From an uncultured delta proteobacterium (lineage in GTDB: Bacteria; Desulfobacterota; Desulfuromonadia; Desulfuromonadales; JACZKF01): 64,000 bases of DNA. Shown here piece after piece: positions 38,218-55,622 of this stretch. Positions within the stretch are counted from its first letter, which is position 1, and each line of letters begins with the position of its first letter. The stretch lies in contig CAWKDO010000011.1 of assembly GCA_963848425.1 (NCBI GenBank), positions 355 through 64,354 of the forward strand, in the 5' to 3' direction. The notes under the pieces were generated by a model. It saw only the letters and a list, made by a program, of their open reading frames with translations. It was not told the DNA's origin and did not search any database. A program made the position numbers and the translations under genes.

Positions 38218-40173
38218 ATGCAAGGATGGAACAGCCAGACCACCGCGAAAGCCTGGTCTAGTTACATCGATGAGGACCGCCTCGATCTGCAGACGGTTCG
38301 GCAGGCGGTCGCCACCTCGTGGGCGCGCTGCCGCGCTCTGGAAATCGACCCCTACGGCACGGTAAACCTCCCTACCCCCCAGCTGGAGCTGCGCGAGCGG
38401 CTGCACCGGCGCTGCCATCTGGTAAAAATCGCCCTTCCCTTCATGCAGAACCTCTACAACTTCGTAAAAGGTTCCGGTTTTCAGGTCATCCTGGCCGATG
38501 AGGAGGGCTATCTTCTCGAGGTCGTCGGCGACCCCGATATTCTGGCCAAGACCCGGCAGGTCCAGCTCAGCCCCGGCGGCAACTGGGCCGAAGAGAGCAA
38601 GGGAACCAATGCCATCGGCACCGCCATCGTCGAGCGGAAACCGGTCCAGATCCACGCCTGGGAACATTACTGCCAGGCCAATCATTTCCTCACCTGCTCG
38701 GCCGCACCGATCTTCGACCCGGAGGGACGGTTGCTGGGCGCCCTCGACATCACCGGCGATTACCGCTTCGCCAACGCCCACACCCTCGGCATGGTAGTGG
38801 CGGCGGTCAACGCCATCGAAAATCAGCTGCGCCTGCAGAAGACTACCGCCAGCCTGTATGTCGCCTACCGCTACTCCAACACCTTGCTCGAATCGATGTC
38901 GGACGGTCTGGTTTCCATCAATACCGGCGGCATCATCACCGAGCTGAACAGCACCGGCGGCCGAATTCTCGGCATCCATCCGAACACGGCCAAAGGCCGG
39001 CACATCAACGACGTTCCTGCGGGCGCCGGCGCCGATGCTGCAGCTGCTGACCTCCGGCGGGGAGTACCGGGACAAGGAGATCCCCCTGGCGACGCTGGGC
39101 AAGACGATCTACAGCTCCGCCACCCTGCTGCACGACGACGACGGCCGGCTGATCGGCGCCGTCGCGGTGCTGCGGGAAGGCCGCCAGGCGACCCGGAACG
39201 CGACCCTGCCCCCCCGCTACTCTTTCGTCGACATCACCGGCACCAGCGCGGCGATCAGCGAAGCCAGGCAATGGGCCGAGCTGGCGGCGGCGATGCCCTC
39301 AACCGTCCTGCTCAATGGCGAGAGCGGCACCGGCAAGGAACTCTTCGCCCAAGCGATTCACAATGCCAGCCCGCGGTGCAAAGGCCCTTTCGTCGCGCTC
39401 AACTGCGCCGCCTTGCCGGAAACTCTGATCGAAAGCGAACTGTTCGGCTACGAGGAGGGGGCCTTCACCGGCGCCCGCAAGGGGGGCAGACCGGCAAGTT
39501 CGAGCTCTCCCACGGCGGGTCCATCTTCCTCGACGAAATCGGCGACATGCCCCTGGGCGTCCAGGCCAAACTGCTGCGGGTCATCCAGGAGAAGAAGATC
39601 GCCCGCGTCGGCTCGTCCCGCGAGCTGCCGGTGGACATCCGGATCATCGCCGCCACCCACCGCGATCTGGCCGCCGAGGTGCGCGCCGGGCGCTTCCGGG
39701 AGGACCTCTATTACCGCCTCAACGTCGTTGCCATCCGGATTCCGGCGTTGCGCGAACGCAAGGAAGATCTGCCCCTGCTGGCCCGCCAGCTGCTGGAGAG
39801 AGTCGCCGCGAAGCTGGGCCGCGAGCTGCAGGCCGGCGACGACTTTCTCGGCGGACTCGCCGCTCATCACTGGCCCGGCAATGTCCGCGAGCTGGAGAAC
39901 ACCCTGGAGCGGGCCGCCCTGCGGGCCGGCGAAGTGGGCGTGCTCACCGCAGACCACCTCGTCCTCGACCATCCCGCCGGCAACACCCCGCCCATCCCGG
40001 CCACCGCATCGTTGGCCAACGAGCCGGTACGCTCGCTGAAAGAGGTGGAGAAGGAGGCGATCTCCCATGCCCTGGCGAAGCACGCGGGCAACATCAGCCA
40101 AGCCGCCACCGACCTCGGCATCGGCCGCAACACCCTTTACCGCAAGATCAAGGAGTACGGACTGTCGATCTAA
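38218..40173 (+). pseudogene. sigma54-dependent transcriptional activator, AcoR-type (GAF-PAS-AAA+-HTH), two frameshifts as assembled
   Basis: N-terminal GAF-like region (..PGGNWAEESKGTNAIGTAIVERKPVQIHAWEHY..). The central part lies in ORF 39035.. with Walker A GESGTGKE and the GAFTGA loop. It returns to the first frame at the G-run 39478-39484 (..[18 protein letters not shown]..). C-terminal Fis-type HTH AATDLGIGRNTLYRKIKEYG. Confidence 0.85.
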
Positions 40174-40239: not shown

Positions 40240-40438
40240 TTGCGCAGAAAAATGGCTGACCGAGGAGTGCGCGAGGGATATCTGACGAAGGCCAGGCATT
40301 TAGAGGCAGAAAGGAGGCCGCTCTTCATAATTATCGCAAATGAGGAGGGGATGTGGTAAAGGTGAAACGGATAGCCACAACCCTGTGATCTGTGGGGGCC
40401 GCGCCGAAAGGCCACGGAGGTATGCCGGAGGTGATGAC

Positions 40439-40732
40439 ATGATCGGTAGAGATCAGGCATTAGAAGTGTTGCGCAGTCTTAAAAGTGAGTTTTCAGATCG
40501 CTACGGCATCACCGCTCTTGGAATTTTCGGCTCGGTGGCCCGCGGGGAGGCAAAAATGACGAGTGACTTGGATGTGGTGGTTAAAATGCGGGAACCCAAC
40601 CTCTTTACTCTCGTTCATGTCAAGGAGGATCTGGAAGAAGCGCTGCATGAGCATGTGGATATCGTCCAATACCGGGAGCGGATGAACTCGTTTCTGAAAC
40701 GGCGCATCGACCAGGAAGCTGTCTATGTATGA
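40439..40732 (+). CDS. MNT-type nucleotidyltransferase antitoxin (MntA-like)
   Basis: GGAGGTGA lies upstream of the ATG. GIFGSVARGE...SDLDVVV is the minimal nucleotidyltransferase G-S..D.D motif. 8-nt overlap with the HepT gene. Confidence 0.8.
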   Translation: MIGRDQALEVLRSLKSEFSDRYGITALGIFGSVARGEAKMTSDLDVVVKMREPNLFTLVHVKEDLEEALHEHVDIVQYRERMNSFLKRRIDQEAVYV

Positions 40733-41111
40733 CTCCGAATTGGTCATTGAAATCCTGCGGCAAATCCAGGAGGCGGGAAAAAGGATCGAGCGACGCTTTT
40801 CCCCCGTACGATTTCCTGATGATTTTCTGATTACGGACGAGGGACTTGACCGCCTGGATGCAATCTGCATGATGCTGATCGCCATCGGTGAAAGCCTCAA
40901 GAACCTTGACAAGCTGACCAACGGTGAGCTGCTGGCGAGATACCCCGGTGTCGATTGGAAAGGTGCCAAAGGGGCGCGTGACATCATTTCCCATCACTAT
41001 TTCGATTTGAATGCCGAGGCGGTGTTCGGCATCTGTCAAAGCGACATCCCAAACCTCGCCGTGACCATTGAGAAGATGATTGAGGATCTGAGCCATGGCG
41101 CAGCGTCGTAG
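40725..41111 (+). CDS. HepT-like (DUF86/HEPN) toxin
   Basis: 128 aa. The RDIISHHY segment is the HEPN Rx4H motif. Paired with the MNT gene. Confidence 0.8.
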   Translation: MYDSELVIEILRQIQEAGKRIERRFSPVRFPDDFLITDEGLDRLDAICMMLIAIGESLKNLDKLTNGELLARYPGVDWKGAKGARDIISHHYFDLNAEAVFGICQSDIPNLAVTIEKMIEDLSHGAAS

Positions 41112-41119
41112 GAGGTCTA

Positions 41120-41455
41120 ATGCCCCCGAAAGGATTTTCTTGTAAGCAGTGCGGCAATTGCTGTCTTAATCTCGGCGCATATCAAACGTGTGCAACGGAT
41201 GAGGATGTCGCCTCATGGGAGAAAAACGGACGAGACGATATCCTGGAATGGGTAGATGAGATGGTGCCCGGAATTTATGACATCTGGATCAGCCCGCGGA
41301 CCGGTGACGATGTCAGCCGATGCCCATGGCTCCGCAAGCTGCCGCGGCAGGAAAAGTACATTTGCCGGATTCAAGATATGAAGCCGAGGATATGCAGAAA
41401 TTATCCGCTATCGAAAGATCAGGCGGAAAAAACCGGATGCATGGGGTTTGGGTAG
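41120..41455 (+). CDS. YkgJ-family cysteine-cluster protein
   Basis: 111 aa. CKQCGNCC N-terminal cluster, plus C..C near the C-terminus (CPWL, CRIQDMKPRICRNYP). Confidence 0.7.
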   Translation: MPPKGFSCKQCGNCCLNLGAYQTCATDEDVASWEKNGRDDILEWVDEMVPGIYDIWISPRTGDDVSRCPWLRKLPRQEKYICRIQDMKPRICRNYPLSKDQAEKTGCMGFG

Positions 41456-41852: not shown

Positions 41853-42191
41853 ATGCCTCCGATTGGGACGAATTTAGATGGATATGTACTGAATATGATA
41901 CGGGATGCGTACATAGCCGGGGAGATCCGCAAGACGAAGGACTGCATGGCAGACATGGCTCGTGACAGGCTGTACGAAGCCGATGTGGAGAAGGTTATCA
42001 CTGAAGCGGATTCCATAGAGAAAGCCATGCCGGCCACGAGTGAACGAGCAAGCAGTCCCAAAAACACCCACTACGTTTTACGCGGGGCCAGCACCAGAGG
42101 TACTGAGGTCTATTGCAAGGTCTGCAGCAATTACCATCCGAGGACGGACGAATTCCTCGGCTGGAAACTGACCTCTTTCGAGAACAAGTGA
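41853..42191 (+). CDS. MqsR-like type II toxin
   Basis: 112 aa. The C-terminal pattern ..SIEKAMPATSE..YVLRGASTRGTEVYCKV....WKLTSFENK parallels MqsR (..FYKSMTT..DVY....VYLKI....IVSFKEK). Followed 8 nt later by an MqsA-type gene. Confidence 0.55.
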   Translation: MPPIGTNLDGYVLNMIRDAYIAGEIRKTKDCMADMARDRLYEADVEKVITEADSIEKAMPATSERASSPKNTHYVLRGASTRGTEVYCKVCSNYHPRTDEFLGWKLTSFENK

Positions 42192-42199
42192 GACTGACC

Positions 42200-43090
42200 A
42201 TGATCTGCACAGACTGCTTCGAAGCAGAATATGAGGCTGGCAAAACCGAGTTGACCGTCACCATCAACGGCGAGCGACATGTCCTCCGCGATCTCGATTG
42301 CGAGACCTGCCCCGCGTGCGGTGAAATCACCTTTACTCACGCCCAGAGCCTGGAAGTCGATAAAAAGCGGATCGCCCTCGAATTCGGGGTGAAGCCGCTG
42401 CTGACGTCTGCCCAGTTGAAAAACCTGCGACGCTTTCTAGGCATGAAACTGGACGAGATCTGCGACCTGCTTCATATCGGCAGAAACACCTACGGCCGCT
42501 GGGAACGCGGGGAAGTGGAAATTACCCCATCCATGAACCTGCTGGTCCATAACCTTATCGAAAAGGTTCCCGATGCCCGCGTGAATGTCCTGGACAACGT
42601 AAGGATCGCAGCGATTGAAAAGGCGAACGCCACGTTGCTTGGACAATACATCTCTTTTGGCGAATACATCAGGGAAGCGATGGCCGCTACCAAACTGGTC
42701 CCGGTTGTCGTGTGCGCCTCGGTTGACATAGAGCCAGCGAACCTTACCAGGATTCAGAACAACGATGTGGCGCCGGAAAGAACACCTGCTGAGATAACGG
42801 CAAAGCTCGCCCATTTCTTCAGGGTTAACTTCGACGCTTTGAAGAGGCTGTTGAATGAGACGGCCATCGTTTTTGCCCTGAAGAATTCAGTGATGGCCGT
42901 GCATGCCCGGTCCACCTGTTACGACGCCAAGGGAGCGGCGGTACAGTCAAGCAGCGTCAACAAGATCATGGAGAAACTGGCCCAGAAAAAGGGGGCGGAG
43001 CCAGGCCGAAAACAGGTGAGCGAGGAGTATCTGGATAAGGTCAAAGCAATTCTGGAGCGGCTGAACGAGAGCGGGGGGGTAGAGCCATGA
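42200..43090 (+). CDS. extended MqsA-like antitoxin/repressor: CxxC..CxxC zinc ribbon + XRE HTH + second HTH-like domain
   Basis: MICTDC..CETCPACGE zinc ribbon, then LTSAQLKNLRRFLGMKLDEICDLLHIGRNTYGRWERGE (XRE HTH). The extra ~170 aa include a second HTH-like segment (ISFGEYIREAMAATKL..VDIEPANLTRIQNND). At 296 aa it is about twice the size of E. coli MqsA. The stop overlaps the ImmA start (ATGA). Confidence 0.7.
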   Translation: MICTDCFEAEYEAGKTELTVTINGERHVLRDLDCETCPACGEITFTHAQSLEVDKKRIALEFGVKPLLTSAQLKNLRRFLGMKLDEICDLLHIGRNTYGRWERGEVEITPSMNLLVHNLIEKVPDARVNVLDNVRIAAIEKANATLLGQYISFGEYIREAMAATKLVPVVVCASVDIEPANLTRIQNNDVAPERTPAEITAKLAHFFRVNFDALKRLLNETAIVFALKNSVMAVHARSTCYDAKGAAVQSSSVNKIMEKLAQKKGAEPGRKQVSEEYLDKVKAILERLNESGGVEP

Positions 43091-43605
43091 TGGAGCCGAA
43101 TTATAAATTTGCCAGGGAGATGGCCAGGAAGATATTGCGGCAGCACAAGATCACTAGCGTTCCCACGGATATGCAAATAATTTGCGAACGGCTGGGTTTG
43201 GAGTTTGTCGAATTGGATGATCCGAACGAGAGTGATGGCGCGGTGTTAGAGATGGAGGGGGGATTGCGGGTTGCCATGCTGAACAGGGCAAAGCCGTTCG
43301 TCCGTGCCCGGTTCACCCTGGCCCACGAGCTTGGCCACATCTTTCTTAATCACGACAAGCGCGAGTTTTACGATCCCGAGGTGGCAAGGGAGTGGGGCGA
43401 GGATGCGCCGGAGAATGCGAAACCGGCAAAGGAGAGGGAGGCGGATGCGTTTGCTTCGGAGTTGCTGATTCCGATGGAGCAGCTGAAAAAGTATCAGGGT
43501 GAATTGAATAATCTTGAAAAGCTGGCGGGGATATTTCAGGTCAGCAAACCCGCCATGTCGATTGCGGTGGCGAATTATTTTAGTTCTTCGAAGAATTTTA
43601 AGTGA
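43087..43605 (+). CDS. ImmA/IrrE-family zinc metallopeptidase
   Basis: 172 aa. FTLAHELGHIFLNH (HExxH) and downstream EREADAFASELLIP are typical of ImmA/IrrE (DUF955). Confidence 0.85.
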   Translation: MMEPNYKFAREMARKILRQHKITSVPTDMQIICERLGLEFVELDDPNESDGAVLEMEGGLRVAMLNRAKPFVRARFTLAHELGHIFLNHDKREFYDPEVAREWGEDAPENAKPAKEREADAFASELLIPMEQLKKYQGELNNLEKLAGIFQVSKPAMSIAVANYFSSSKNFK

Positions 43606-43749: not shown

Positions 43750-44568
43750 GTGCATATCTACACGTTGAATGTTGGGCAGGGTCAATTCGTTGTCGTTACT
43801 GGTGATACGCAAGCGGTAATTGTGGATACTTATGTGCCGCTCAATCCTACTAACGACATCATTAACGTTAAAGCGGCGCTAGCGACAATTCTTCCGGGCA
43901 AGGAACTTGTAGGGCTTATTGTTACCGGATTTGACTCTGATCATTTTAATGAAGTGGGGATGAAAATAGTCCTGAACAAGTACAGGCCAAATTGGATAAT
44001 GTACCCAAAATACTTCAAGGATACCAAGGTGGCAGACGCATGCTTTGACGTAATAAAGGGCTTTGAGTCACAAAAAGCCTTTAATCGTCACTCGGTATCG
44101 CTGTCCCAGAATGACACCAGATTCTACAAGAAGCTATCAACAGATTTCCAATTTGAAATCTTTTCGCCACATTCTGCTGACATGAATTCATCCAATAATT
44201 GTTCATTGGTTTGTCGAATAAAAGAACGATCTACAGGCTGCACATACCTCGTTACAGGGGACACAGAGAATGATCGGTGGAAGTCAATTGTGCAATATTT
44301 CGGTAAAGCACTTGCCTCCGATGTTCTCGCTGCCCCACATCATGGGTCAAAGAACGGTATCTCTGCAGAGGCATTGGCTTTGATTAAACCAAAATCTGTT
44401 CTAATCAGTGCCGGAGTGGACAACCAATATGGGCATCCTAACCGGGAAGCAACCCGATTTTTTGCAGCTCACACTGAAAAATACTATTCGACCAATTATG
44501 GTGGTGGTCAGTCCATAAAGACAGTGGTTTCGGGGCAAGATGTGAATACCTACAAATTCGTGCCATAG
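43750..44568 (+). CDS. MBL-fold protein 1 (ComEC C-terminal-domain type)
   Basis: AAGGAGG lies upstream of a GTG start. IYTLNVGQGQFVVV, LIVTGFDSDHF (degenerate HxHxDH), YLVTGDTE, LAAPHHGSKNG and QYGHPN follow the ComEC/Rec2-type metallo-beta-lactamase pattern. Confidence 0.75.
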   Translation: MHIYTLNVGQGQFVVVTGDTQAVIVDTYVPLNPTNDIINVKAALATILPGKELVGLIVTGFDSDHFNEVGMKIVLNKYRPNWIMYPKYFKDTKVADACFDVIKGFESQKAFNRHSVSLSQNDTRFYKKLSTDFQFEIFSPHSADMNSSNNCSLVCRIKERSTGCTYLVTGDTENDRWKSIVQYFGKALASDVLAAPHHGSKNGISAEALALIKPKSVLISAGVDNQYGHPNREATRFFAAHTEKYYSTNYGGGQSIKTVVSGQDVNTYKFVP

Positions 44569-44584
44569 AGGAAGGAACCAACTC

Positions 44585-45727
44585 ATGCACCAGATTATCT
44601 TTTACCCAGTAGGCAACGGTGACAGTAGTCAGATTATCCTCGAAAACGGTAAGCGGATATTATTCGATTACCGGCATTTGAAGAAAGGGGAAGGTGAGGA
44701 GAGCCCAGAAATCGACTTGAAGGGACGCCTGAAAAAAGAGCTTGATGACGCAAAGAGGGACTACTTCGATGTTGTCGGTTTTACCCATTGCGATAGCGAT
44801 CACATTGAAAATAGCACCGAGTTTTTTGAGCTGCGCTATGCCCAGAAATACCAAGGCAACGACGGCAGGATAAAGATCAACGAATTGTGGGCCCCGGCTG
44901 CCATGATCCTGGAAACAACAACGAACGGCCAGCAAAGCAGCGAGTTCGTCATCTGGCGGCAGGAAGCCCGATATCGCTTGAAGAAAGGCGAAGGCATCCG
45001 CGTTTTTTCGAAGCCTGACAAATTGAAAGACTGGCTTGAAGGCGAAGGCTTGTCGGTAGAATCACGGAAACATCTTATCACGGACGCGGGGTCGTTAGTG
45101 CCTGGGTTTGACCTCCAGAAAGACGGCATCGAGTTCTTCTGCCATAGCCCGTTCATCCGGCATGCCGACGACGGTGACGACCTCCGAAACCCGTGTTCAC
45201 TCATCTTCAATGTCCGGTTGAAAGCCGGAACCAATACATACGACTACCTGGCCGTCGGGGATACGGAATGGGAAATTTTGGAGGAGATCGTCAGCACCAC
45301 ACGGTATCACAAGAACGATGATCGGTTAAATTGGGACATCTTCAACATTCCTCACCACTGCAGCTACCTGGCTCTCAGTGACGAAAAAGGAGAAAAGGAG
45401 ACGGAGCCGAAGCCCCTTGTCAAAGACCTGCTGCTCCAGGGGACGACTGATGCATACATTGTCAGCTCAAGCAACCCGATAAAGGATTCGAAGGAAGCAC
45501 GGGAACAAACGCAGCCCCCTCATATTCAGGCTAAGAAATGCTATGAGCGGTACTTAAAGGAGGTTAACGGCGCAAAATTCCTTGTGACGATGGAAGAGCC
45601 GAACGAGAAAACTCCCGAGCCTCTTGTATTCAACATCGAAAGCAACGGGATCAAGCGCGGTGCGAAGAAACCAGTTGCGGCTCCATCTGTGATCATTACG
45701 TCTGCTCCGGCTCCGAGGGCAGGTTAA
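44585..45727 (+). CDS. MBL-fold protein 2 (divergent paralog) with Pro/Ala-rich C-terminal tail ending in Gly
   Basis: IIFYPVGNGDSSQIIL, VVGFTHCDSDHI, YLAVGDTE and NIPHHCSY parallel protein 1. Extra insertions. Tail ..GAKKPVAAPSVIITSAPAPRAG-stop. The TAA is immediately followed by the ATG of the next gene. Confidence 0.7.
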   Translation: MHQIIFYPVGNGDSSQIILENGKRILFDYRHLKKGEGEESPEIDLKGRLKKELDDAKRDYFDVVGFTHCDSDHIENSTEFFELRYAQKYQGNDGRIKINELWAPAAMILETTTNGQQSSEFVIWRQEARYRLKKGEGIRVFSKPDKLKDWLEGEGLSVESRKHLITDAGSLVPGFDLQKDGIEFFCHSPFIRHADDGDDLRNPCSLIFNVRLKAGTNTYDYLAVGDTEWEILEEIVSTTRYHKNDDRLNWDIFNIPHHCSYLALSDEKGEKETEPKPLVKDLLLQGTTDAYIVSSSNPIKDSKEAREQTQPPHIQAKKCYERYLKEVNGAKFLVTMEEPNEKTPEPLVFNIESNGIKRGAKKPVAAPSVIITSAPAPRAG

Positions 45728-47974
45728 ATGTCTTCGTTCATCTCCTTGGGCGAAGCCTTGCCTGCTGTTGCAGGTGACCTTTTGGAGCAGCCGTATGCAA
45801 GAGAGACTCTTGATGTAGCCGCACGGGCTAAAGATGTCGAGATTGTCCAGCTTCGCCGAGCAAAGAATGCCGATGGCAGCTTTTCGGATGTCATCGTTGT
45901 CGATGTCGTCAACGATGACATCCCGACGAGGAACACCTATGGTATCAGGGTCAGAGAGCGGTTGGCCCTTGTTTTTCATGCCACCGGCCTTCCTGAAGTG
46001 CGGGCGCTACGTGCCGACTTCCCAATCGTTCTCCATACCAATCACACTCCCCCTGGCGAACCCCGCCAACTGTGCCTCTACTTTGAGCCTTGGTCTGTTG
46101 TTGAGAGGACTTGGACACCGCAGAAATTCATCAAACGAATCATGTGGTGGCTCGGCGAGAGTGCGAATGGAACTCTGCATCGGCCCGACCAACCCGTAGA
46201 ACAGCTGTATTTTACAAGCCCATTTGAGATTGTCCTACCTCCCGACTTCGACGAAAAAATACTCGATGACAACCTGGCCTTAACCTGGTCTTCCTCCCCT
46301 GACCTCAAAACATTACGGTCCTTTTTCTTGCCGAAAGGGCACCCCCAGCTCAAGACCATTTCCGGCATCACCTTTCTTTCCCTTGAACTTCCTCCCCTTA
46401 TTCATGGTCCAGTCGAATGCTACCCAAACACTTTGGGCGGTCTGCATAACCAACTTGCCGCTCGCGGGGCACCGTTTATCGATGAATTGAGGAGTAAGAT
46501 CAAAGAGAAGGTACCTCAAGAGGGGATATTAAGGTCCTCGAAAGATCGGTGCCTATTATTCCTTTTTTTGCCCGTCAAGAGAGATGCGTCCTCTTCACCG
46601 GAAAAACGTGACATTATTGCTTTTCTCATACCGTCCGATTTGTCAGTTGTCGGCGAGGCCACAGAAGATCTAGCCCATTACGATGGGAAATACTATGCAA
46701 CTTCTCTTCTCGGTGCTACGCCGCCTTCCGAAAAATGGCGCGATCTGGCCATAGCCCCAATCGAAGTGAAATACGAAATCGGGCTGCCGTTTGCTCGGTC
46801 AGCCTCTGGAATTGATGGCTCTAATGCCGATCTTGCTGGCGTCATGGCTGGAGTTGGTGCTCTAGGAAGCGCAATTTTGGAACTGTGGGTTCGTGAAGGC
46901 TGGGGGCGGTGGACGCTAATTGATCCGGATATGATAAAGGCCCACAACCTGGTCCGACACATCGCTCGTAACACCGATATCGGCAAAGCCAAAGTCGATG
47001 TTGTAAAAAACTCAATCGAAGCCATCTACCACCCAGGATACCTCGCTGTTGCCGGTATCAAGGGAAGCGCGACTGCGTGGGACAGAGTCGAAATACGCGA
47101 TGCAATTTGCACCTCTTCGATTTTTGTCAACGCGACCACAACCCTCGATGTCCCCAGGGATATGTCGCAGCGTGAACAAGCACCACGAATAGCATCCATC
47201 TTCGTAACGCCATCTGGCCGTGATTCTGTGCTCCTGATTGAATCAAGTGACAGGCAAGCACGTGTTGATTCGCTCGAAGCTCAGTATTACAGAGCCCTTT
47301 TGGAACTTCCACTGGGCATAGATCATTTAGACGGCAACGCTGGTGGATTATGGGTAGGTGCTGGCTGCAGAGACATTTCCGCAAAGATTTCCTACGAGGA
47401 TATTCAACTGCATGCTGCCATTTTGGCGAAGCAGGTTCGCACCGCATCAAGGAGAACCGAGGCCCAAGTTTGCATCTGGCGCTCGGAGCCGACAGGCGCG
47501 GTCACCACAGCAAATCTTGATGTGAAGGAGACTGTCAGAAGGGAATCGGAAGGGTGGCATGTTGTCTGGGATAAGGGGGTGGAAGAGAAAATGATTGCCA
47601 TTCGGCAAACCCACCTTCCGGAAGAAACTGGCGGTGTCCTAGTTGGCTACATCGACCAGAAACTGCGCCATATCTATGTTGTTGATGCCCTTTCGGCACC
47701 CGCTGACAGCGTTTCCGAAAGGGGGAGTTTTATCCGAGGCATCGACGGTCTCAATAAAAAGCTGGGGGAGATTGGCACACGAACAGCCAACATCGTGGGG
47801 TATCTTGGCGAATGGCATTCACACCCTCCTTTTTCGGGGCCTAGTCCGAGCCCTTGGGATAAGCTTCTCGTGAAAACATTAGCCGATGTCTTGGCAATGG
47901 ATGGTCTTCCTGCGTTGATGATGATCGTTGGAGCCGCAAGAGAAATCTCTGTATCCGTGAGGTTTGTGGCGTGA
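45728..47974 (+). CDS. E2-like / E1-like (ThiF) / JAB (JAMM) triple-fusion protein
   Basis: 748 aa. E2-like H103-T-N..C116 (VLHTNHTPPGEPRQLCLYF). E1 Rossmann loop AGVGALGS (aa 373-380), LIDPD, NLVRH. JAMM: E632/E633-TGGVLVG, H697-S-H699, S708-P-W-D711. Confidence 0.8.
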   Translation: MSSFISLGEALPAVAGDLLEQPYARETLDVAARAKDVEIVQLRRAKNADGSFSDVIVVDVVNDDIPTRNTYGIRVRERLALVFHATGLPEVRALRADFPIVLHTNHTPPGEPRQLCLYFEPWSVVERTWTPQKFIKRIMWWLGESANGTLHRPDQPVEQLYFTSPFEIVLPPDFDEKILDDNLALTWSSSPDLKTLRSFFLPKGHPQLKTISGITFLSLELPPLIHGPVECYPNTLGGLHNQLAARGAPFIDELRSKIKEKVPQEGILRSSKDRCLLFLFLPVKRDASSSPEKRDIIAFLIPSDLSVVGEATEDLAHYDGKYYATSLLGATPPSEKWRDLAIAPIEVKYEIGLPFARSASGIDGSNADLAGVMAGVGALGSAILELWVREGWGRWTLIDPDMIKAHNLVRHIARNTDIGKAKVDVVKNSIEAIYHPGYLAVAGIKGSATAWDRVEIRDAICTSSIFVNATTTLDVPRDMSQREQAPRIASIFVTPSGRDSVLLIESSDRQARVDSLEAQYYRALLELPLGIDHLDGNAGGLWVGAGCRDISAKISYEDIQLHAAILAKQVRTASRRTEAQVCIWRSEPTGAVTTANLDVKETVRRESEGWHVVWDKGVEEKMIAIRQTHLPEETGGVLVGYIDQKLRHIYVVDALSAPADSVSERGSFIRGIDGLNKKLGEIGTRTANIVGYLGEWHSHPPFSGPSPSPWDKLLVKTLADVLAMDGLPALMMIVGAAREISVSVRFVA

Positions 47975-49131
47975 CGACCGAAAGCAAACGAATAGGAATC
48001 GCCCTCTCAGGTGGCGGTGTCCGGGCTGCCGCATTCCATGCCGGGGTATTGTTATGGCTGGCTGAAAAAGGGCAGCTAGAGACAATTCGTCATATCTCAT
48101 CCGTATCCGGAGGAAGCCTCTTTGCTGGCCTCATCTTCCATATTTCCGATTATGCATGGCCTTCGTCTGAGGCATATGCCAGCAAGGTTTTCCCTGCTAT
48201 CAGGTCCGTTTTAACTTCCAATTCACTCCAGGTGAACGCTTTGCTCCGCCTTCTTCACCCATTGAATTGGCGATTTTTGCTTTCACGTGCAAACATCCTG
48301 GCCCAAAGCATCCGGCACCTTTGGGGAGTAACTGGCTCTCTTTCTGATCTTCCAGGCAATCCAGTGTGGTCAATTAATGGTACTACCGCCGAAAACGGGA
48401 GGAGGTTCCGGTTTAAAGAAAAGAAACTGGGAGACTACGAGATTGGGTATGCTGATGCGCCCAATTTCCCCTTAGCTGACGCGATGGCGATCTCTGCCGC
48501 TTTTCCTGGTGGAATCGGCCCGTTAAAGATTTTTTCCGACAGATTCGAATGGGAAAAGCGAAAGTCTTGGGATTGGTCAACTGCCCCCGAAAAAATTGAG
48601 CCGACTTTTCGGCGCATCCACATATATGACGGTGGCGTGTATGACAACCTGGGTCTGGAACCCTTCTTTGACATTGGGAAACAGGTTATAAAGACCGAAA
48701 CAGGAAGCCCACCGGTAGATTTCATAATTGTTTCAGACGCTGGAGCCGCTTTCGGCCGACAACAGATTCCGGGGCCACTACATCCAGGACGCTTAGAGCG
48801 GGTCGCAAATATTGGGTTTGGCCAGGCGAGGGCTTTGAGGGTTAGGTCCTTTGTCCACTTTCTTCAGCACAATAGTGATTCAGGAATGTATGTCCAAATC
48901 GGCTCTGACCCCGTCGCTTCGATAAAAACATATGGAGAAAAGTCTTTGCCGATGACGGATATCCAATGGCTAACCGCCGACAAAGTTGCTGAGGCGGGGA
49001 GATATCCAACTTCATTACGCAAAATGCAAGTGGATGAATTCGACCTGCTAGCTTTGCATGGTTATCAGACTGTTGCATGGAATGAATTTGTTTTCGGCAG
49101 TACCGTAGCTCTAGGGAATCTGAAAAATTGA
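47971..49131 (+). CDS. patatin-like phospholipase
   Basis: The GTG start overlaps the upstream stop (GTGA). GIALSGGGVRAAAFHAG (oxyanion GGGxR), SVSGGS (nucleophile Ser), IYDGGVYDNLG (catalytic Asp). Confidence 0.85.
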   Translation: MTTESKRIGIALSGGGVRAAAFHAGVLLWLAEKGQLETIRHISSVSGGSLFAGLIFHISDYAWPSSEAYASKVFPAIRSVLTSNSLQVNALLRLLHPLNWRFLLSRANILAQSIRHLWGVTGSLSDLPGNPVWSINGTTAENGRRFRFKEKKLGDYEIGYADAPNFPLADAMAISAAFPGGIGPLKIFSDRFEWEKRKSWDWSTAPEKIEPTFRRIHIYDGGVYDNLGLEPFFDIGKQVIKTETGSPPVDFIIVSDAGAAFGRQQIPGPLHPGRLERVANIGFGQARALRVRSFVHFLQHNSDSGMYVQIGSDPVASIKTYGEKSLPMTDIQWLTADKVAEAGRYPTSLRKMQVDEFDLLALHGYQTVAWNEFVFGSTVALGNLKN

Positions 49132-49278
49132 GCGATCCCAAGGGGGTGTTTCTGTCAAGGCAATGAAACATGACTAAAGAACACCGCTCATGAAAGCCGG
49201 ATTTTACCGTGCTAATCTAATAATCCTTGCCTGAGATCGTCCGCATTAGCGTTCTGCCTTCGCCCGCGCCCGCAATAA

Positions 49279-49316
49279 GAAGGGGCTTGCAAGCCGATCA
49301 GCCTGCAAGCCCCTTT
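49279..49316. terminator. bidirectional terminator between the patatin gene and the radical SAM gene
   Basis: GGGGCTTGCA-N12-TGCAAGCCCC (10-bp stem) flanked by AAGAA / TTTCCTTT. Confidence 0.7.
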
Positions 49317-49342
49317 CCTTTACCTCCGAACCCACCTTGGTC

Positions 49343-50673
49343 TTACGCCATGCACTGAAACAATCCGGCACTCCACAAGCAGCTGCCGCACGGCTCGGCG
49401 TTGACGTAGCAGTCCTGTTCGAAACTCTCCGCCTGCACATAGTCGCAGGGGGCGAAGTTACACCCGGGGCAGAAGGGATAATCGTAGCGCAGCACGTTCT
49501 CCCGGTAGGCACGAAACTCCCGGCTGTTCCAGATGTCCAGCAAACCTTTCTCGGCCAGGCTGCCGAAAACTTTCGGCTGCACCGGATGCAGCCAGCCGCT
49601 GGCAAAGGAACGGCAGGCGTGCCAGAGATAGTAACAGGGGTGCACCTTGCCGTCCCAGGAGACGAACGCTCCCCCTGCTCGACGAAATCGCACCGCCGCC
49701 GCTCCCGCGGCGCCGCTTCGGGGAGCCGCAGATCGAGGCCGGTTTCCCGCGCCACCTCCCGCGCCTCCTCGAAAACCTCGACCACCTCGTCGAGCCCGGA
49801 GCTGCCCGCGGCGAGGAGACGCCTGAGGTCGAGGGTGATGCCGCAGTTTTGCGCATCGGCCTTCATCGTTTCGACGAAATTGGCAATCCTTTGCTCCTCC
49901 GCCGTTTTTTGGTACTTCCAGAGAATGTCGAAATAGCGCCGGAGATCGACGCCGGCAAGCTCGGCCTTGACCTCCCAGGCATGAAAGAGGGATATGGCTT
50001 CGATGGTGCAGAGATCATAAGCCGCTTGGGTAGTATGGGCCTCGTCATAGGGGAGGACGTGGGAAGCGATGGCGAAGGTGGCCCCGCGGGCGGCAGCCCA
50101 GCGCAGCGCCGACGGCAACTCCCGCAGGTTGTCGCGCATGACGACGAATTCGACGCCGACCTGCAGGTCCGGCCGGCCGCATGCCGCCTTGGCGGTGGTA
50201 AGGGCGGCAAGAGCGCACTCGAGATCGCGCAGCTGTCCGCCCTCGCGGATCGAGCGGAAGGTCTCGGCAGAAGCGCCATCCATCGACAAGCAGATCCGGT
50301 CCACCCCCGCTTTGGCAAGGGTCACCGCACGAAGTTTGGTCAGTAGAAGCCCGTTGCTCTGAAACCCGACCCAGCTCCGGGCCGGCATCAGCTTCTTCGC
50401 CCGGCCGATGAACCGCTCCAGATGGGGATGGAGCAGCGGCTCGCCAATGCCGTTGAGGACCAGCGCCTCCAGATCCGGAAAGGCTGGCTCCAAAGCGGCG
50501 AAGGTCCCCGGCTGCAGATCCCCGTCCCCCGTTTGGCCGGAGGTTTGCTTCATGCACATGACGCAGTTCAGGTTACAGCGGCTGGTCGTTTCGACAAACA
50601 GCTTCGCCGGTTGCCGCCGCAACCCCGGCCTGCTTTCAACTTCACGGCAGGAAGGATGTGCCAGGACCGTCAT
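49343..50673 (-). pseudogene. radical SAM/SPASM-domain protein, one frameshift near 49685 as assembled
   Basis: FVETTSRCNLNCVMC (CxxxCxxC). The C-terminal SPASM-like Cys-rich part lies in ORF 49343..49693 (..VHPCYYLWHAC.., YPFCPGCNFAPCDY.., CGSCLWSAGLFQC). Confidence 0.75.
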
Positions 50674-50867: not shown

Positions 50868-51269
50868 CGCTCTTCTCCTTTCCCTCTGTAAATCGTCGTC
50901 TGCGGCTGACAGCGCCGTTCCCGGATGCCATCTCTACAAAATGGATACCAAGCCGGAAGCCGGTTCGGCGTCCGGGTGCGCCAAAACGGGCGCAGAGTCG
51001 CTCGCCAAGCGCGTCGCCGCCGGCACAGGCCAGCAAACTGGCGGCGCATCACCCCGCCACTTCTGTTCCCCTTTGGCACAGCCGTACCGTTCCGGAATAG
51101 AACAGCCACGCCAAAATGGAACACCCCCAAGCGAGCCTCCAGAAGAGCTTCCGCCGCCGCTTCCTCCACCGAATCATTGCGGAATGCCGAGCAAATTCAA
51201 AACCTTTACCGCCGGAAGGCGGCCAACCGAAAACGTGGCTGCTGCGATCTGCAGCCAGTGGACAGAGCT

Positions 51270-51284
51270 TGGTACGGTACTTGC
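51270..51284 (+). promoter_or_regulatory. sigma54 (-24/-12) promoter upstream of adh
   Basis: TGGTAC-GGTAC-TTGC matches TGGCAC-N5-TTGC in 9 of 10 conserved positions. About 110 nt upstream of the ATG at 51395. Confidence 0.6.
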
Positions 51285-51394
51285 CAAACTTTGTTTTAAT
51301 ATCTGCATGCTCCCCAGCGGCTGGAATTGCCACCGCCGGGGAGGAACTGGCCGGAAACGGCTGAACTCATTACCGGATAAAAAAGGAGAGAGCA

Positions 51395-52563
51395 ATGGCA
51401 TTAGCAGAGCAGACTTACGGATTCTACATCCCGACCGTTTCACTGATGGGTATCGGCTGCGCCAAGGAAACAGGCGCGCAGGCCAAGGCGCTCGGCGCGA
51501 CCAAGCTGCTGATCGTCACCGACGCAGGGCTCTCCAAGATGGGCGTTGCCGACAAGATCAAGGCCCAGGTGGAAGCGGCCGGCGCTCAAGGCGGTCATCT
51601 TCGACGGCGCCGAGCCGAACCCGACCGACACGAACGTCCATGCCGGCGTCAAGGTTTACCAGGACAACAAGTGCGACGGCATCATCTCCCTCGGCGGCGG
51701 CAGCTCCCATGACTGCGGCAAGGGGATCGGCATGGTCATCGGCAACGGCGGCCACATCCGCGACTACGAAGGGGTCAACAAGATCCACCAAGCCGATGCC
51801 GCCCTTCCTCGCCATCAACACCACCGCCGGCACCGCCAGCGAAATGACCCGCTTCTGCATCATCACCAACACCGACACCCACGTGAAGATGGCGATCGTC
51901 GACTGGCGCTGCACCCCGAACATCGCCATCAACGATCCGCTGCTGATGGTCGGCATGCCCCCCGCACTGACCGCCGCCACCGGCATGGACGCCCTGACCC
52001 ACGCCGTCGAGGCGTATGTCTCCATCATCGCCACCCCGATCACCGACGCCTGCGCCATCAAGGCGATCGAGCTGATCGCCGAGTACCTGCGCCCGGCCGT
52101 GGCCAACGGCGACGAACCTGGAAGCCCGCGACAAGATGGCCTATGCCGAGTACCTGGCCGGCATGGCGTTCAACAACGCCAGCCTCGGCTACGTCCACGC
52201 CATGGCTCACCAGCTGGGCGGCTTCTACAACCTGCCCCACGGCGTCTGCAACGCCATCCTGCTCCCGGCCGTCTGCGAGTTCAACCTGATCGCCAGTCCG
52301 CAGCGTTTCGCCGACATCGCCGTTGCCATGGGCGAGAACATCGCCGGCCTCTCCGACGTCGAAGCCGCCGCCAAAGGCGATCGCCGCCATCCGCAAGCTC
52401 TCCGCGGCCATCGGCATCCCGGCCGGCCTCAAGGCGCTGAACGTCAAGGAGACCGGACCTGAAGGTCATGGCGGAAAACGCCAAGAAAGACGCCTGCATG
52501 CTCACCAACCCGCGCAAGGCCACCCTTGAGCAGGTCATCGACATCTTCAAGGCGGCAATGTAA
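51395..52563 (+). pseudogene. iron-containing (group III) alcohol dehydrogenase, at least five frameshifts as assembled
   Basis: Co-linear pieces in three frames: [22 protein letters not shown].., [16 protein letters not shown] (GGGSxxD), [58 protein letters not shown], ..MLTNPRKATLEQVIDIFKAAM-stop (TAA 52561-52563). Confidence 0.85.
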
Positions 52564-52708: not shown

Positions 52709-54453
52709 ATGGATAAGATTTTACGCGTAAACATGACCGACCTCAGCGCACCAATCGAAGACGGTGCCGGCCGCATGGGCGGGGCTCGGCGGTCGCGGCG
52801 CTCACCTCGACCATCGTCGCCGCAGGAAGTCCCACCCACCTGCCACCCGCTCGGCGAGCACAACAAACTGGTCTTTGCCCCCGGCCTGCTCGCCGGCACC
52901 CCCGCAGCCAAGTCCGGGCGGCTCTCTGCCGGCGCCAAGAGCCCGCTGACCGGCACCATCAAGGAGATCAACGCCGGCGGCACCGCGGCACAGAACCTGG
53001 CCCGGCTCGGCATCAAGGCGCTGATCATCGAAGGCATGCCGGCCGAGGACACGAAGTGGTACAGCCTCCACATCAACAAGGACGGCGCCACAATCAGCGA
53101 AGAGACGGAACTGGTCGGCAAAGGGAACTACGAGGTGATCGACGCCCTCGAGGCAGCGGCTCGGCAAGAAGACCGGCGTCCTCACCATCGGCCCGGCCGG
53201 CGAAATGAGGATGACCGCAGCCAACATCTCGGTCAAGGACCCGGACAGCAAGATCCGCAGCCACGGCCGCGGCGGGCTCGGCGCCGTCATGGGCTCCAAG
53301 AAGATCAAGTACATCTCCATCGACGATGCCGGCGGCCCCGGCGTCGAACATCGCCGATCCGGAGAAATTCAAGACCGCCGCCAAGACCTTCGCCAAGGCG
53401 ATGCTCGATCACCCGGTCAGCGGCGAAGGGCTGCCCACCTACGGCACCAACGTCCTGGTCAACATCCTCAACGAGGCCGGCGGCCTGCCGACCAGGAACT
53501 TCCGTACCGGCCAGTTCGAAGGGCACGACAAGATCTGCGGCGAGACCATGCACGACACCATCGTCGCCCGCGGCGGCAAGCCGAAGCACGGCTGCCATGC
53601 CGGCTGCATCATCCAGTGTTCGCAGGTCTACAACGACAAGGAAGGCAAGTACATGACCTCCGGCTTCGAGTACGAGACCGATCTGGGGCTTCGGCGCCAA
53701 CTGCTGCATCGACGACCTGGACGACATCGCCCATGCCGACAGGATCATGGACGACATCGGCATCGACTCCATCGAGACCGCCGTCATCTTCGGCGTCGCC
53801 ATGGAAGCCGGCATCCTCCCCTTCGGCGACGGTCAAGGCATCCTGCGGCTGCTGCGAGGAAATCGGCAAGGGAACCCCGCTCGGGCCGCATCCTCGGCGG
53901 CGGCGCCGGCTTCGGTCGGCAAGGCCTATGGCCTGACCCGGGTCCCGGTGGTCAAAGAACCAGGGGATCCCCGCCTACGATCCGCGCTCCGTCAAAGGGA
54001 TCGGCATCACCTACGCCACCACCACCATGGGCGCCGACCACACCGCCGGCTACACCATCGCCACCAACATCCTCAACGTCGGCGGTTTTGTCGATCCGCT
54101 GCAAGAAGGATGGCCAGGTGGAACTCTCCCGCAACCTGCAGATCGCCACCGCCGCCGTCGACTCGACCGGCCTCTGCATCTTCGTCGCCTTCCCGGCCCT
54201 CGACATCCCCGAGATGCCTGCCGGCGATCATCGACATGATCAACGCCCGTTACGGCATCTGCCCTGACCGGCGAGGACGTGATCGACCTCGGCAAGCAGG
54301 TCCTGAAGACCGAGCGCGCGTTCAACATCGCGGCCGGCTTCACCAACAAGCACGACCGGCTGCCCGAATTCTTCGCCGAGGATACCTGTGCACCGCACAA
54401 TCGTTACCTGGACGATCAGCGACGCGGAAATCGACGAGTTCTGGAATTTTTAA
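52709..54453 (+). pseudogene. aor: aldehyde:ferredoxin oxidoreductase (tungstopterin AOR family), at least eight frameshifts as assembled
   Basis: Pieces in three frames rejoin into a full AOR: MDKILRVNMTDLS.., HPLGEHNKLVFAPGLLAGTPAAKSGRLSAGAKSPLTG, RSHGRGGLGAVMGSKKIK, LPTYGTNVLVNILNEAGGLPTRNF, KPKHGCHAGCIIQC, TTTMGADHTAGY, ..DEFWNF-stop (TAA 54451-54453). Confidence 0.85.
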
Positions 54454-54550: not shown

Positions 54551-54775
54551 ATGCAGATCACCGTCAAATTGTTCGCCTCCTTCCGCATCGGCCGCTTCGT
54601 GGCGATGCCGCAGAGCTATCCGGCAGACACGACTGTCGGCAAGATCGTTAGCGAACTGCACATCCCGGAAGCGGAAGTGGGCGTGGTCCTGATCAACAGC
54701 CGGCATGCCGAACTGCGGCAGCGGCTGAATGAGGGGGACACCCTCTCCCTCTTCCCCCTCGTCGGGGGAGGATGA
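54551..54775 (+). CDS. MoaD/ThiS-family sulfur-carrier (ubiquitin-like) protein
   Basis: GAGGAG lies 6 nt upstream of ATG 54551. 74 aa starting MQITVKLFASFR and ending ..LSLFPLVGGG-stop (C-terminal Gly-Gly). Confidence 0.8.
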   Translation: MQITVKLFASFRIGRFVAMPQSYPADTTVGKIVSELHIPEAEVGVVLINSRHAELRQRLNEGDTLSLFPLVGGG

Positions 54776-54776
54776 T

Positions 54777-55622
54777 ATGAACCTGCACGCCTTTCTGACC
54801 AACCAGGCCCGGGGCGATCTGCTCCCCTGGTCCGTCCAGGTCGCAGCCGCCCAAGGTTACGATCTCGCCCTGGGCGAGGTGGAAGAGACGGCACTCGTAC
54901 TCGGCCTGTTGCCGGCCCGTTATCAGCGCAACCGGCAGACGATCGGGATCGAGCAGCAGCTTCGGCTTTGCCGCAGCAAGGCGGTAATCATCGGCAGCGG
55001 CGGCCTCGGCGGTTACCTGGTCGAGGAATTGGCCCGGCTCGGCGTCGGCCGGCTGGTAGTTATCGATCCCGACGTTTTCGAGGAACACAATCTGAACCGC
55101 CAGCTCCTCTCCTCTCCGGCCCTTCTGGGCGAGCCGAAAGTGAAGGTTGCGGCGGCGCGGGTCGGCGAGATCAATCCCGCCGTCACCGTCACCCCCCGGC
55201 GCGAGGCCTTCGGCCCTGGCAATGCCCGGGAACTTCTCGCCGGCGCCGACGTGGTGCTGGACGGACTCGACACGATCACCGCCCGGCTGGAGCTGGCGCA
55301 GGCGTGCTCTGAACTCGCCCTTCCCCTGGTGCACGGCGCAATCGGCGGCTGGTACGGCCAAGTCGCCACCCAGCTGCCGGGGGAGGAGATCGCGCCACAT
55401 CTCTTCGGCCCCTGGGCACAGCAACCGAAGGGCGTGGAGACACGGCTGGGCAATCCATCCTTCACCCCGGCGGTGGTGGCCAGTCTCCAGGTCGCCGAGG
55501 CGTGCAAAATCCTGCTGGGGCAGGGAGAGCTTCTTTCTGGTCGCTTTCTTTTCATCAATCTCTATGATATGGAGTTCGCTGAGATCGGGACCGAAAGACA
55601 CCGGGAAGTGGTTGGGCAATAG
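54777..55622 (+). CDS. ThiF/MoeB/HesA-family E1-like adenylyltransferase
   Basis: AVIIGSGGLGGYLVEELARLGVGRLVVIDPDVFEEHNLNRQ (GxGxxG, D.D, NLNRQ). Starts 1 nt after the MoaD-like stop. Confidence 0.8.
   Translation: MNLHAFLTNQARGDLLPWSVQVAAAQGYDLALGEVEETALVLGLLPARYQRNRQTIGIEQQLRLCRSKAVIIGSGGLGGYLVEELARLGVGRLVVIDPDVFEEHNLNRQLLSSPALLGEPKVKVAAARVGEINPAVTVTPRREAFGPGNARELLAGADVVLDGLDTITARLELAQACSELALPLVHGAIGGWYGQVATQLPGEEIAPHLFGPWAQQPKGVETRLGNPSFTPAVVASLQVAEACKILLGQGELLSGRFLFINLYDMEFAEIGTERHREVVGQ

Follow-up and report, generated by a model that had tools for sequence, protein, structure and literature searches.

Operons in which a chain of E2, E1 and JAB domains, the 'triple module protein', is encoded beside a specialized MBL-fold protein were described by Iyer, Burroughs and Aravind in 2006 as operon type 6a, a class first presented as comprising 'usually two genes' (PMC1779556). 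MBL pathways have been placed alongside type II CBASS and Pycsar among those in which a fused E2-E1 protein conjugates a partner enzyme, the conjugated partners being termed 'signaling enzymes' (PMC11601596), and related defense MBLs have been described as autoinhibited DNases (10.1101/2025.09.03.673762). The resulting 6A-MBL system is listed as a phage defense, including against jumbo phages, in Pseudomonas aeruginosa, in reports that cite van den Berg 2024. In type II CBASS, Cap2 carries between its E2 and E1 domains a linker homologous to the ATG7 N-terminal domain, with C109 as the E2 cysteine and C548 as the E1 cysteine on a crossover loop (10.1101/2022.03.31.486616). Among the sources found by our literature search, which covered reports other than the primary van den Berg 2024 one, there was no mechanistic study of 6A-MBL, and the 6A-MBL literature found names neither a target nor a function of the MBL enzyme and does not explain why the peptidase is fused. 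The NCBIfam models of the system comprise two proteins only.

Here we analyzed a window of 64,000 nucleotides from an uncultured delta proteobacterium (contig CAWKDO010000011.1) and show that the gene at positions 45728..47974, cap2_3, is an ordinary member of this already catalogued anti-phage system. The reading frame is intact from its ATG start and encodes a 748-residue protein. It lies on the plus strand, as do its domain-coding segments and the neighboring operon genes described below. The protein matches the NCBIfam model 6A-MBL_cap2_3 (NF058523.1) with a score of 626.1 bits (cut-off 320), in one stretch of residues 66-733 that spans profile positions 1-665 of 665, and Pfam places E2, E1 and JAB in this order within the single chain (residues 29-171, 373-434 and 617-739). 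The adjacent MBL gene product likewise scores above its NCBIfam cut-off, and the locus agrees with type 6a in its two core genes, in their order and spacing, and in the E2-E1-JAB architecture. An earlier note on this DNA had recognized a 748-residue polypeptide combining E2, E1 and JAMM activities, which the intact frame and the three Pfam domains confirm, and each motif that it quoted is found at the residue given. The same note saw in the fusion a departure from the separate Cap2 and Cap3 proteins; the family is, however, already curated as an NCBIfam equivalog, and the cap2_3 fusion itself is not new, having been described in 2006 and being covered by NCBI annotation models.

Frame changes disrupt two other genes of the window, encoding a sigma-54 activator (about 39.2-39.5 kb) and an aldehyde ferredoxin oxidoreductase (52.7-54.3 kb), indicating that indel errors or pseudogenes exist in this sequence and lending some substance to the concern, raised in the earlier note, that an assembly or frameshift artefact had joined separate Cap2-like and Cap3-like genes. 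The homologs speak otherwise. At E <= 1e-5 the protein matches 530 database proteins, and its relatives are encoded in at least 479 species genomes; among the 120 matches listed, all but two are about 750-810 residues long, and nearly all share its three Pfam domains, with a query coverage of 95-100%. Colinear homologs of 750-810 residues are found in the hundreds across many phyla, with identity down to 29%, JAB follows E1 directly and gaplessly in the alignment, and the NCBIfam match crosses the junction unbroken. These colinear full-length homologs exclude the frameshift explanation, whose probability we regard as negligible.

Residue conservation was counted over 80 full-length cap2_3 relatives, each from a different species. 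The E2 domain (residues 1-170, 45728..46237) is matched by Pfam Prok-E2_A over residues 29-171 (E = 4.9e-27), which confirms the E2-like signature H103-T-N105 and C116 noticed earlier; H103 and the catalytic C116 (codon 46073-46075) are kept in 80/80 relatives and N105 in 69/80. The E1 adenylation domain (residues ~361-600, 46808..47527) is matched by Pfam ThiF over residues 373-434 (E = 2.2e-12) and by profile to Cap2, and the ThiF-type assignment is borne out by its motifs, AGVGALG (G375, G377, G380), LIDPD (D399, D401) and NLVRH (N407, R410), together with K422. G375, G377, G380, D399, D401, N407, K422 and C547 are invariant in all 80 relatives, with R410 and D468 present in 79. C547 (codon 47366-47368) is the probable E1 catalytic cysteine. 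It lies within an invariant GxGCRD loop that is modelled with low confidence (blocks 531-550, pLDDT 53-70) and is presumably flexible; C547 was absent from the motif list of the earlier note. The JAB/JAMM isopeptidase domain (residues ~601-748, 47528..47971) is matched by Pfam Prok-JAB over residues 617-739 (E = 4.6e-9), by PADLOC JAB (E = 5.1e-23), by NCBIfam Cap3 below its cut-off (E = 1.1e-10) and by the PDB entry 9ild_A, annotated 'Peptidase' (E = 3.8e-7). Its motifs are EETGG (E633), HSH (H697, H699) and SPWD (S708, D711), and the metal-binding and catalytic residues E633, H697, H699, S708 and D711 are found in 80/80 relatives, as is S698. Overall, the catalytic residues of all three enzymatic domains, including the candidate C547, are intact (C116, C547, E633, H697, H699, S708, D711).

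The segment between E2 and E1 (residues ~171-360, 46238..46807) had been noted as matching nothing and proposed as a sensor or substrate-docking domain. At the level of sequence the first point stands: residues 170-360 gave no match in Pfam, PADLOC, PDB phmmer or PDB profile searches, and the linker is the least conserved segment of cap2_3 (mean column conservation 0.36 vs ~0.51-0.54 elsewhere). At the level of fold it does not, as the segment is confidently modelled as an α/β domain (pLDDT ~79-92) within an AF2 model of mean pLDDT 86.8, for which Foldseek returned full-length Cap2 (7to3_A) as the best PDB match (E = 5e-27, 629 columns, TM 0.52/0.67, rmsd 7.6 Å, identity 16%). Since the linker must fall inside this 629-column alignment, whose output gives the overall match rather than per-residue ranges, residues 170-360 are best read, from the predicted model, as a Cap2 linker (ATG7 N-terminal-like) domain; with the first ~600 residues superposing on Cap2, a sensor or docking domain at this position is most likely not present. 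In the E2 and linker regions, which have no sequence-level similarity to Cap2, the likeness is one of predicted structure, while further along the chain positions 377-478 of the cap2_3 family profile match residues 379-477 of 7to3_A, the E1 fold beginning at nearly the same number in both (377 and 379, respectively). The cysteine pairs C116/C547 of cap2_3 and C109/C548 of Cap2 have closely similar residue numbers.

Judged by the match to full-length Cap2, the fold order E2, linker, E1 is shared with type II CBASS (Enterobacter cloacae Cap2, 7TO3), as are a partner enzyme whose C-terminal glycine tail is flexible and a JAMM peptidase with an antagonizing or trimming role; in contrast to CBASS, the peptidase is fused (residues 601-748), with no separate Cap3 gene, and the partner is an MBL-fold hydrolase rather than a CD-NTase. 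The fold search also recovered Atg7-Atg10 (4gsk, E = 1.6e-9), in line with a likeness to ATG7-ATG10/ATG3, but the eukaryotic ATG system differs in its separate E2, its β-grasp Ubl substrate (ATG8/ATG12) and its lack of a fused peptidase. Bil (6E) and Bub also combine E1, E2 and JAB peptidase, and in type I Bub the JAB domain is likewise fused to the E1-containing BubCD, although there it sits at the N-terminus and serines serve as catalytic residues (PMC11601596). Nor does cap2_3 fit the ThiF/MoeB sulfur-carrier adenylyltransferases, which are stand-alone E1 enzymes with a ThiS/MoaD partner in cofactor biosynthesis: all NCBIfam models of this class score only 17-36 bits on cap2_3, against cut-offs of 150-650. 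PADLOC CBASS 'E1-E2' and 'JAB' models, on the other hand, do match cap2_3, up to E = 2.7e-25, and a CapP-like gene lies upstream, as might be expected if the locus were type II CBASS or a Bil-type module and acted on a nearby CD-NTase or a free ubiquitin-like protein. We find this very improbable: the E2 of cap2_3 belongs to Pfam family A, which CBASS profiles miss, no operon gene matched a CD-NTase in Pfam, PADLOC or NCBIfam, and the dedicated Ubl conjugated by Bil and Bub has no counterpart here, no β-grasp Ubl being found among the operon genes by Pfam search and gene annotation. The surrounding island is likewise devoid of CD-NTase and β-grasp genes, and in 81/81 loci an MBL homolog, encoded directly before cap2_3, takes the place of the CD-NTase. 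The sole nucleotidyltransferase of the island, an MNT of 130 residues at 40340-40732, was considered as a CD-NTase substrate and rejected because it is paired with HepT as a toxin-antitoxin gene.

The upstream neighbor is the 6A-MBL enzyme itself (380 residues, 44585..45727), which scores 416.6 bits with NF058524.1 against a cut-off of 220 and adopts a ComEC/Pce-clade MBL fold, with the ComEC β-lactamase-like domain 9ic4 as best fold match (E = 4.3e-10). Its TAA stop codon is directly followed by the ATG of cap2_3. It keeps the HxDxDH, D and HH ligands, and conservation is at least 95% at H68, D70, D72, H73, D226, H257, H258, R378 and G380, the MBL showing ~70% identity over the same loci in which cap2_3 shows 45-50%. 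The protein ends in APAPRAG, within a tail (residues 361-380) that is disordered in the model (pLDDT 35), and a conserved P-R-A-G tail motif is present on the MBL partner in 81/81 loci, with its glycine at the very C-terminus in 59/81 and followed by 1-5 further residues in the other 22. This conserved disordered tail, found at every locus, marks the MBL as the probable conjugation substrate, and in particular as the probable substrate of the cap2_3 E1 domain. It also points to the exact bond that would be made and cut, which makes the system more testable. The substrate, key to the mechanism, did not figure in the earlier note. In a scan of the island for glycine-terminal ORFs, the real genes were this MBL and one unrelated CxxCxxCC protein (ORF 41084-41455, annotated 41120-41455).

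We consider it likely that cap2_3 is a Cap2-Cap3 fusion of the 6A-MBL anti-phage system that acts as proposed by homology with Cap2 and Cap3. By this analogy, the E1 domain would bind the disordered tail of the upstream MBL enzyme and adenylate its terminal Gly380, and the acyl group would move first to C547 on the putative E1 crossover loop and from there to C116 in the E2 domain, which the ATG7-like linker may position above the E1 site of the dimer partner. The MBL enzyme, which in view of its ComEC/Pce clade and its retained ligands most likely acts as a phosphodiesterase or nuclease dependent on metal, would be joined through an isopeptide bond to one target or several and thereby be primed or relocated. 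The C-terminal JAMM domain would undo these conjugates, and in relatives with 1-5 residues after PRAG it may also trim the MBL tail to expose the glycine. The short extensions found in 22/81 genes would provide the fused JAB with a further, well-defined task in tail maturation; the MBL gene studied here already ends at the glycine, so that trimming would be needless. Extra residues after PRAG are found in 7/10 members of a divergent MBL clade that has no patatin and includes the sampled Pseudomonas relative (L030), whose MBL ends in PRAGTAEK; in another relative (L038) the end is PRAGSDD. With its domain reading upheld and its suggestions of a departure from known systems and of a sensor or docking region set aside, the idea of the earlier note that a fused peptidase controls a conjugate of the protein's own making is a reasonable one.

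Downstream, cap2_3 overlaps by 4 nt (GTGA) with the gene of a patatin-like phospholipase (386 residues, 47971..49131; Pfam Patatin E = 5.7e-17) whose motifs GGGxR (14-18), S46 (SVSGG) and D220-G-G reach at least 95% conservation among 37 homologs. Patatin gave no PADLOC or NCBIfam match, even at E <= 1, and its only PDB sequence match is a marginal one to ExoU; assignment as a CapV-type CBASS effector was rejected, the CBASS patatin models in PADLOC being among those without similarity at this threshold. A patatin homolog lies directly downstream of cap2_3 in 39/80 loci, this one included; two unannotated families of ~4 TM helices, with no Pfam or PADLOC match, take the place of the third gene in 14 and 7 of the 80 loci, and in ~18/80 no third gene was recognized beside the MBL-cap2_3 pair. 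These recurrent optional partners suggest a membrane-directed output stage, of which we found no mention in the literature on 6A-MBL, and, like the conserved tail, they make the system more testable. Patatin is probably the membrane effector of the subtype that bears it, and the translationally coupled phospholipase would most likely act by damaging membranes.

The same modularity, reminiscent of CBASS and Pycsar effectors, raises the question of whether the MBL could stand in the place of a CD-NTase as a sensor or signal enzyme that is activated by conjugation and triggers an interchangeable membrane effector. Its conjugated counterparts are after all named 'signaling enzymes' (PMC11601596), and the MBL is far better conserved than cap2_3. 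We nevertheless consider this unlikely, as in the ~18 loci with no recognized third gene the MBL would need to work by itself, type 6a was described as usually two genes, and the patatin lacks detectable similarity to the CBASS patatin models in PADLOC. MBL-fold enzymes are moreover hydrolases, and we know of no signal-synthesizing member of the fold. The broader proposal that MBL and cap2_3 form a platform comparable to CBASS, combined with one or another membrane-directed effector (patatin, the two 4-TM families and a second MBL), appears to us just as doubtful. If true, the conjugated MBL would be an upstream sensor or signal generator, instead of or besides a killing enzyme, and the patatin-bearing four-gene form with CapH/CapP-type control would represent an undescribed subtype with an equally undescribed route coupling an MBL to a phospholipase.

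Beyond the described two-gene system, this locus, which sits within a low-GC island, contains the coupled patatin gene, a further MBL that is ComEC-like, and genes for a CapH/CapP-like pair, and its genes form an apparent operon in the order CapH-like, CapP-like, short MBL, 6A-MBL enzyme, cap2_3 and patatin, with stop and start codons abutting or overlapping at the MBL/cap2_3 and cap2_3/patatin junctions. Scans for promoters and terminators of the operon gave signals no higher than the shuffled background. The shorter MBL-fold protein (272 residues, 43750..44568), a ComEC/Rec2-like accessory, matches TIGR00361 ComEC_Rec2 below its cut-off (E = 5.5e-27), shares 26% identity with the 380-residue MBL and ends in YKFVP, without a glycine tail; close homologs occupy the same position in three further loci (L033, L045 and L062; E = 1e-114 to 2e-67). 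Upstream lies an M78 (ImmA/IrrE-type) metallopeptidase, a CapP-like regulator (43087..43605; Pfam Peptidase_M78 E = 1.5e-16, PADLOC capP E = 1.7e-26), whose gene overlaps by 4 nt with that of a CapH-like repressor (42200..43090) combining an MqsA-type zinc ribbon (Pfam MqsA_antitoxin E = 5.8e-13) with an XRE HTH (HTH_3) and scoring 62.2 bits with TIGR03830 against a cut-off of 61.8. The program-made ORF of this repressor runs from 42113, and the gene caller places its start at 42200 (296 residues, L001). The pair, found at this locus only among 85, would probably provide stress-inducible transcription, or might instead be part of a DUF4258/MqsA-type toxin-antitoxin module. Finally, a separate, ordinary ThiF gene is present in the window at 54729-55622.

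The open reading frame (ORF) at 45728-47974 (+) is intact and encodes a 748-residue protein, cap2_3, to which Pfam assigns a Prok-E2_A domain (residues 29-171, E = 4.9e-27), a ThiF domain (residues 373-434, E = 2.2e-12) and a Prok-JAB domain (residues 617-739, E = 4.6e-9). The earlier note was thus right to see E2, E1 and JAMM modules in a single chain, and every motif it quoted lies at the residue given. We aligned 80 full-length relatives, drawn from as many loci in public genomes and metagenome contigs and nearly all of different species. H103, C116, the GxGxxG glycines, D399, D401, N407, K422 and C547 are conserved in every one, as are E633, H697, S698, H699, S708 and D711 in the JAB region; N105 is kept in 69/80. 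C547, which lies within an invariant GxGCRD loop and was overlooked in the earlier note, is likely the E1 catalytic cysteine, and the low model confidence of this loop, the lowest in the E1 domain, would fit a mobile crossover loop.

cap2_3 scores 626 bits against the NCBIfam equivalog NF058523.1, 'anti-phage 6A-MBL system cap2_3 protein' (cut-off 320), in one stretch spanning residues 66-733, and the 380-aa product of the ORF directly upstream (44585-45727), hereafter the MBL enzyme, scores 417 bits against NF058524.1, 'anti-phage 6A-MBL system MBL-fold protein' (cut-off 220). By these profile matches the locus is a member of the already catalogued 6A-MBL system, so that the domain reading of the earlier note stands while the novelty it saw in the fusion is largely a rediscovery. 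The E2-E1-JAB architecture was first reported in 2006 by Iyer, Burroughs and Aravind (PMC1779556), and later papers count 6A-MBL among Pseudomonas aeruginosa defences against phage, jumbo phage included. 'MBL pathways' have also been classed together with type II CBASS and Pycsar: in these systems an ATG7-related fused E2-E1 conjugates a partner enzyme to unknown targets (PMC11601596). The residual interest is modest and lies in the poorly understood 6A-MBL mechanism and in the patatin, second MBL and CapH/CapP-like additions at this locus.

A protein search with cap2_3 returned 530 proteins at E <= 1e-5; among the 120 matches listed, all but two are about 750-810 aa long, and the three Pfam domains recur in nearly all of them, with 95-100% of the query covered. 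With each species represented by a single genome, at least 479 species encode a relative, spread over Cyanobacteria, Proteobacteria, Myxococcota, Nitrospirota, Acidobacteriota, Chloroflexota, Planctomycetota, Bacteroidota and other phyla. These colinear full-length relatives, together with an alignment unbroken from E1 to JAB, led us to reject the frameshift artefact that had been named as a possible refutation, although other genes of the window are frame-broken, namely a sigma-54 activator (~39.2-39.5 kb) and an aldehyde ferredoxin oxidoreductase (52.7-54.3 kb). The former, a GAF-PAS protein, is divided over ORFs 38218-40173 and 39035-40039 (+), with Sigma54_activat profile positions 1-84 in one and 84-167 in the other; an indel error or a pseudogene would account for the split. 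The latter extends over three overlapping ORFs at 52709-54267 (+), matching AFOR_N 2-147, AFOR_N 162-197 and AFOR_C 3-100, and the neighbouring Fe-ADH ORF (50941-52440) has a partial profile match only; the high-GC flank thus contains more frame breaks. In four related loci (L020, L058, L061 and L064) the cap2_3 homologue itself occupies two ORFs, which are possible pseudogenes or assembly errors.

Residues 170-360 of cap2_3, said earlier to match nothing, were indeed assigned to no family by Pfam, PADLOC, PDB phmmer or a PDB profile search, but in fold they should fall within a match to full-length Cap2, the E2-linker-E1 protein of type II CBASS. The structure prediction and fold search that the earlier note had called for yielded an AlphaFold2 model with mean pLDDT 86.8 (blocks of 79-92 over residues 170-360), whose top PDB match as a whole is Enterobacter cloacae Cap2 (7to3_A, E = 5e-27; 629 aligned columns, 568-residue chain, TM 0.67 on the target). 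In a profile search, family positions 377-478 match Cap2 residues 379-477, so that some 370 residues precede the E1 fold in both proteins. The N-terminal part of Cap2 comprises an E2 domain and a homologue of the ATG7 N-terminal domain, termed the 'linker domain', which drapes over the partner protomer and brings E2 C109 beside E1 C548 (10.1101/2022.03.31.486616); in cap2_3 the two cysteines are C116 and C547. Judged by coverage and position at the level of the whole match rather than of per-residue ranges, the middle region, the least conserved segment of the 80-relative alignment, is most likely a Cap2-type linker and not the substrate-docking or sensor domain suggested before.

The MBL enzyme ends in ...SAPAPRAG, followed by TAA and immediately by the cap2_3 ATG. 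Its gene lies directly upstream of cap2_3 in all 81 related loci with upstream sequence, each with a P-R-A-G-type end motif whose glycine is the final residue in 59 and is followed by 1-5 residues in 22 (PRAGVK, PRAGSDD and PRAGTAEK, for example). Conservation among 79 homologues reaches at least 95% for both R378 and G380, and the model shows the final 20 residues as disordered (pLDDT 35). As Cap2 acts on the C-terminal tail of the CD-NTase, so this tail bears the signature of a C-terminus adenylated by E1, which makes the MBL enzyme the probable substrate of cap2_3; the short extensions past PRAG suggest a maturation role for the fused JAB, besides deconjugation. Family searches and a scan for Gly-terminal ORFs found neither a β-grasp protein nor a CD-NTase in the island, and membership of CBASS or Bil was rejected on this ground. 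Ten loci (L017, L030, L038, L039, L041, L050, L053, L063, L065 and L069) form a divergent MBL-partner clade (E = 1e-17 to 1e-29 to the MBL enzyme of the window) that includes the Pseudomonas representative, L030; 3-5 residues follow the PRAG motif in seven of them, and none has a patatin.

We consider it quite probable that this is a 6A-MBL system running a cycle like that of Cap2 and Cap3, the type II CBASS JAB protein, on Gly380 of the MBL enzyme. The E1 domain would adenylate Gly380, a thioester would then form on C547, the acyl group would pass to C116, and the MBL enzyme would be ligated by an isopeptide bond to some target, with the fused JAMM domain undoing such conjugates and the damaging activities supplied by the MBL enzyme and patatin. 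By fold, the MBL enzyme comes closest to the β-lactamase-like domain of ComEC (9ic4, E = 4.3e-10), with Pce, the phosphorylcholine esterase of pneumococcus, as the next match. H68-x-D70-x-D72-H73, D226 and H257-H258 are each retained by 95% or more of 79 homologues, and from these residues the enzyme is predicted to be, in all likelihood, a phosphodiesterase or nuclease that depends on metal; among related defence MBLs, those of the Avs1a/Hachiman type are DNases under autoinhibition (10.1101/2025.09.03.673762).

Downstream, with a 4-nt overlap (GTGA), cap2_3 is followed by a gene for a patatin-like phospholipase with conserved GGGxR, S46 and D220-G-G motifs, a homologue of which holds this position in 39/80 loci. 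Where patatin is absent, the MBL/cap2_3 pair may be adjoined by one of two unannotated membrane-protein families of ~210-260 aa and about four helices, neither with a match in Pfam or PADLOC, which are candidate alternative membrane effectors (14 loci: L006-L011, L032, L060, L070, L071, L077, L080, L081 and L085; 7 loci: L036, L038, L050, L053, L069, L078 and L079). Such CBASS-like modularity of the third gene speaks for the main live alternative, where the effector would be encoded by the variable third gene and the MBL would act upstream of it, as a sensor or signal enzyme; we nevertheless regard it as improbable, as the MBL fold is a hydrolase by nature and no third gene is recognised next to the pair in ~18/80 loci.

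A second MBL is another accessory gene of related loci, and the one added here, a 272-aa ComEC-like MBL without a Gly tail, is common to L033, L045 and L062. Also added are an MqsA/HTH protein and an M78 peptidase resembling CapP (PADLOC, E = 1.7e-26), a pair which, by analogy with CBASS regulation, may exert CapH/CapP-type control. Just upstream of the HTH gene, a 112-aa ORF (41853-42191, +) weakly matches DUF4258 (E = 0.039), so the HTH gene might be one half of a toxin-antitoxin pair of the DUF4258/MqsA-like kind, instead of or besides CapH-like regulation.

The island (~40-50 kb) has a G+C content of 49-54%, against 60-66% in the flanks, and has the look of a defence islet gained by horizontal transfer. 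Besides the entire 6A-MBL locus, this low-GC stretch encodes a CxxCxxCC protein (41120-41455) and the toxin-antitoxin pair MNT/HepT (40340-41111). Convergent with the patatin gene is a 475-aa radical SAM protein (49246-50673, -) that weakly matches prokaryotic viperin models in PADLOC (E = 7.8e-10). A stand-alone ThiF/MoeB-type E1 (Pfam ThiF, E = 6e-52) with a radical SAM gene alongside (54729-55622 and 55652-56188, both +) lies near the aldehyde ferredoxin oxidoreductase genes and probably serves cofactor biosynthesis, separate from the defence E1.
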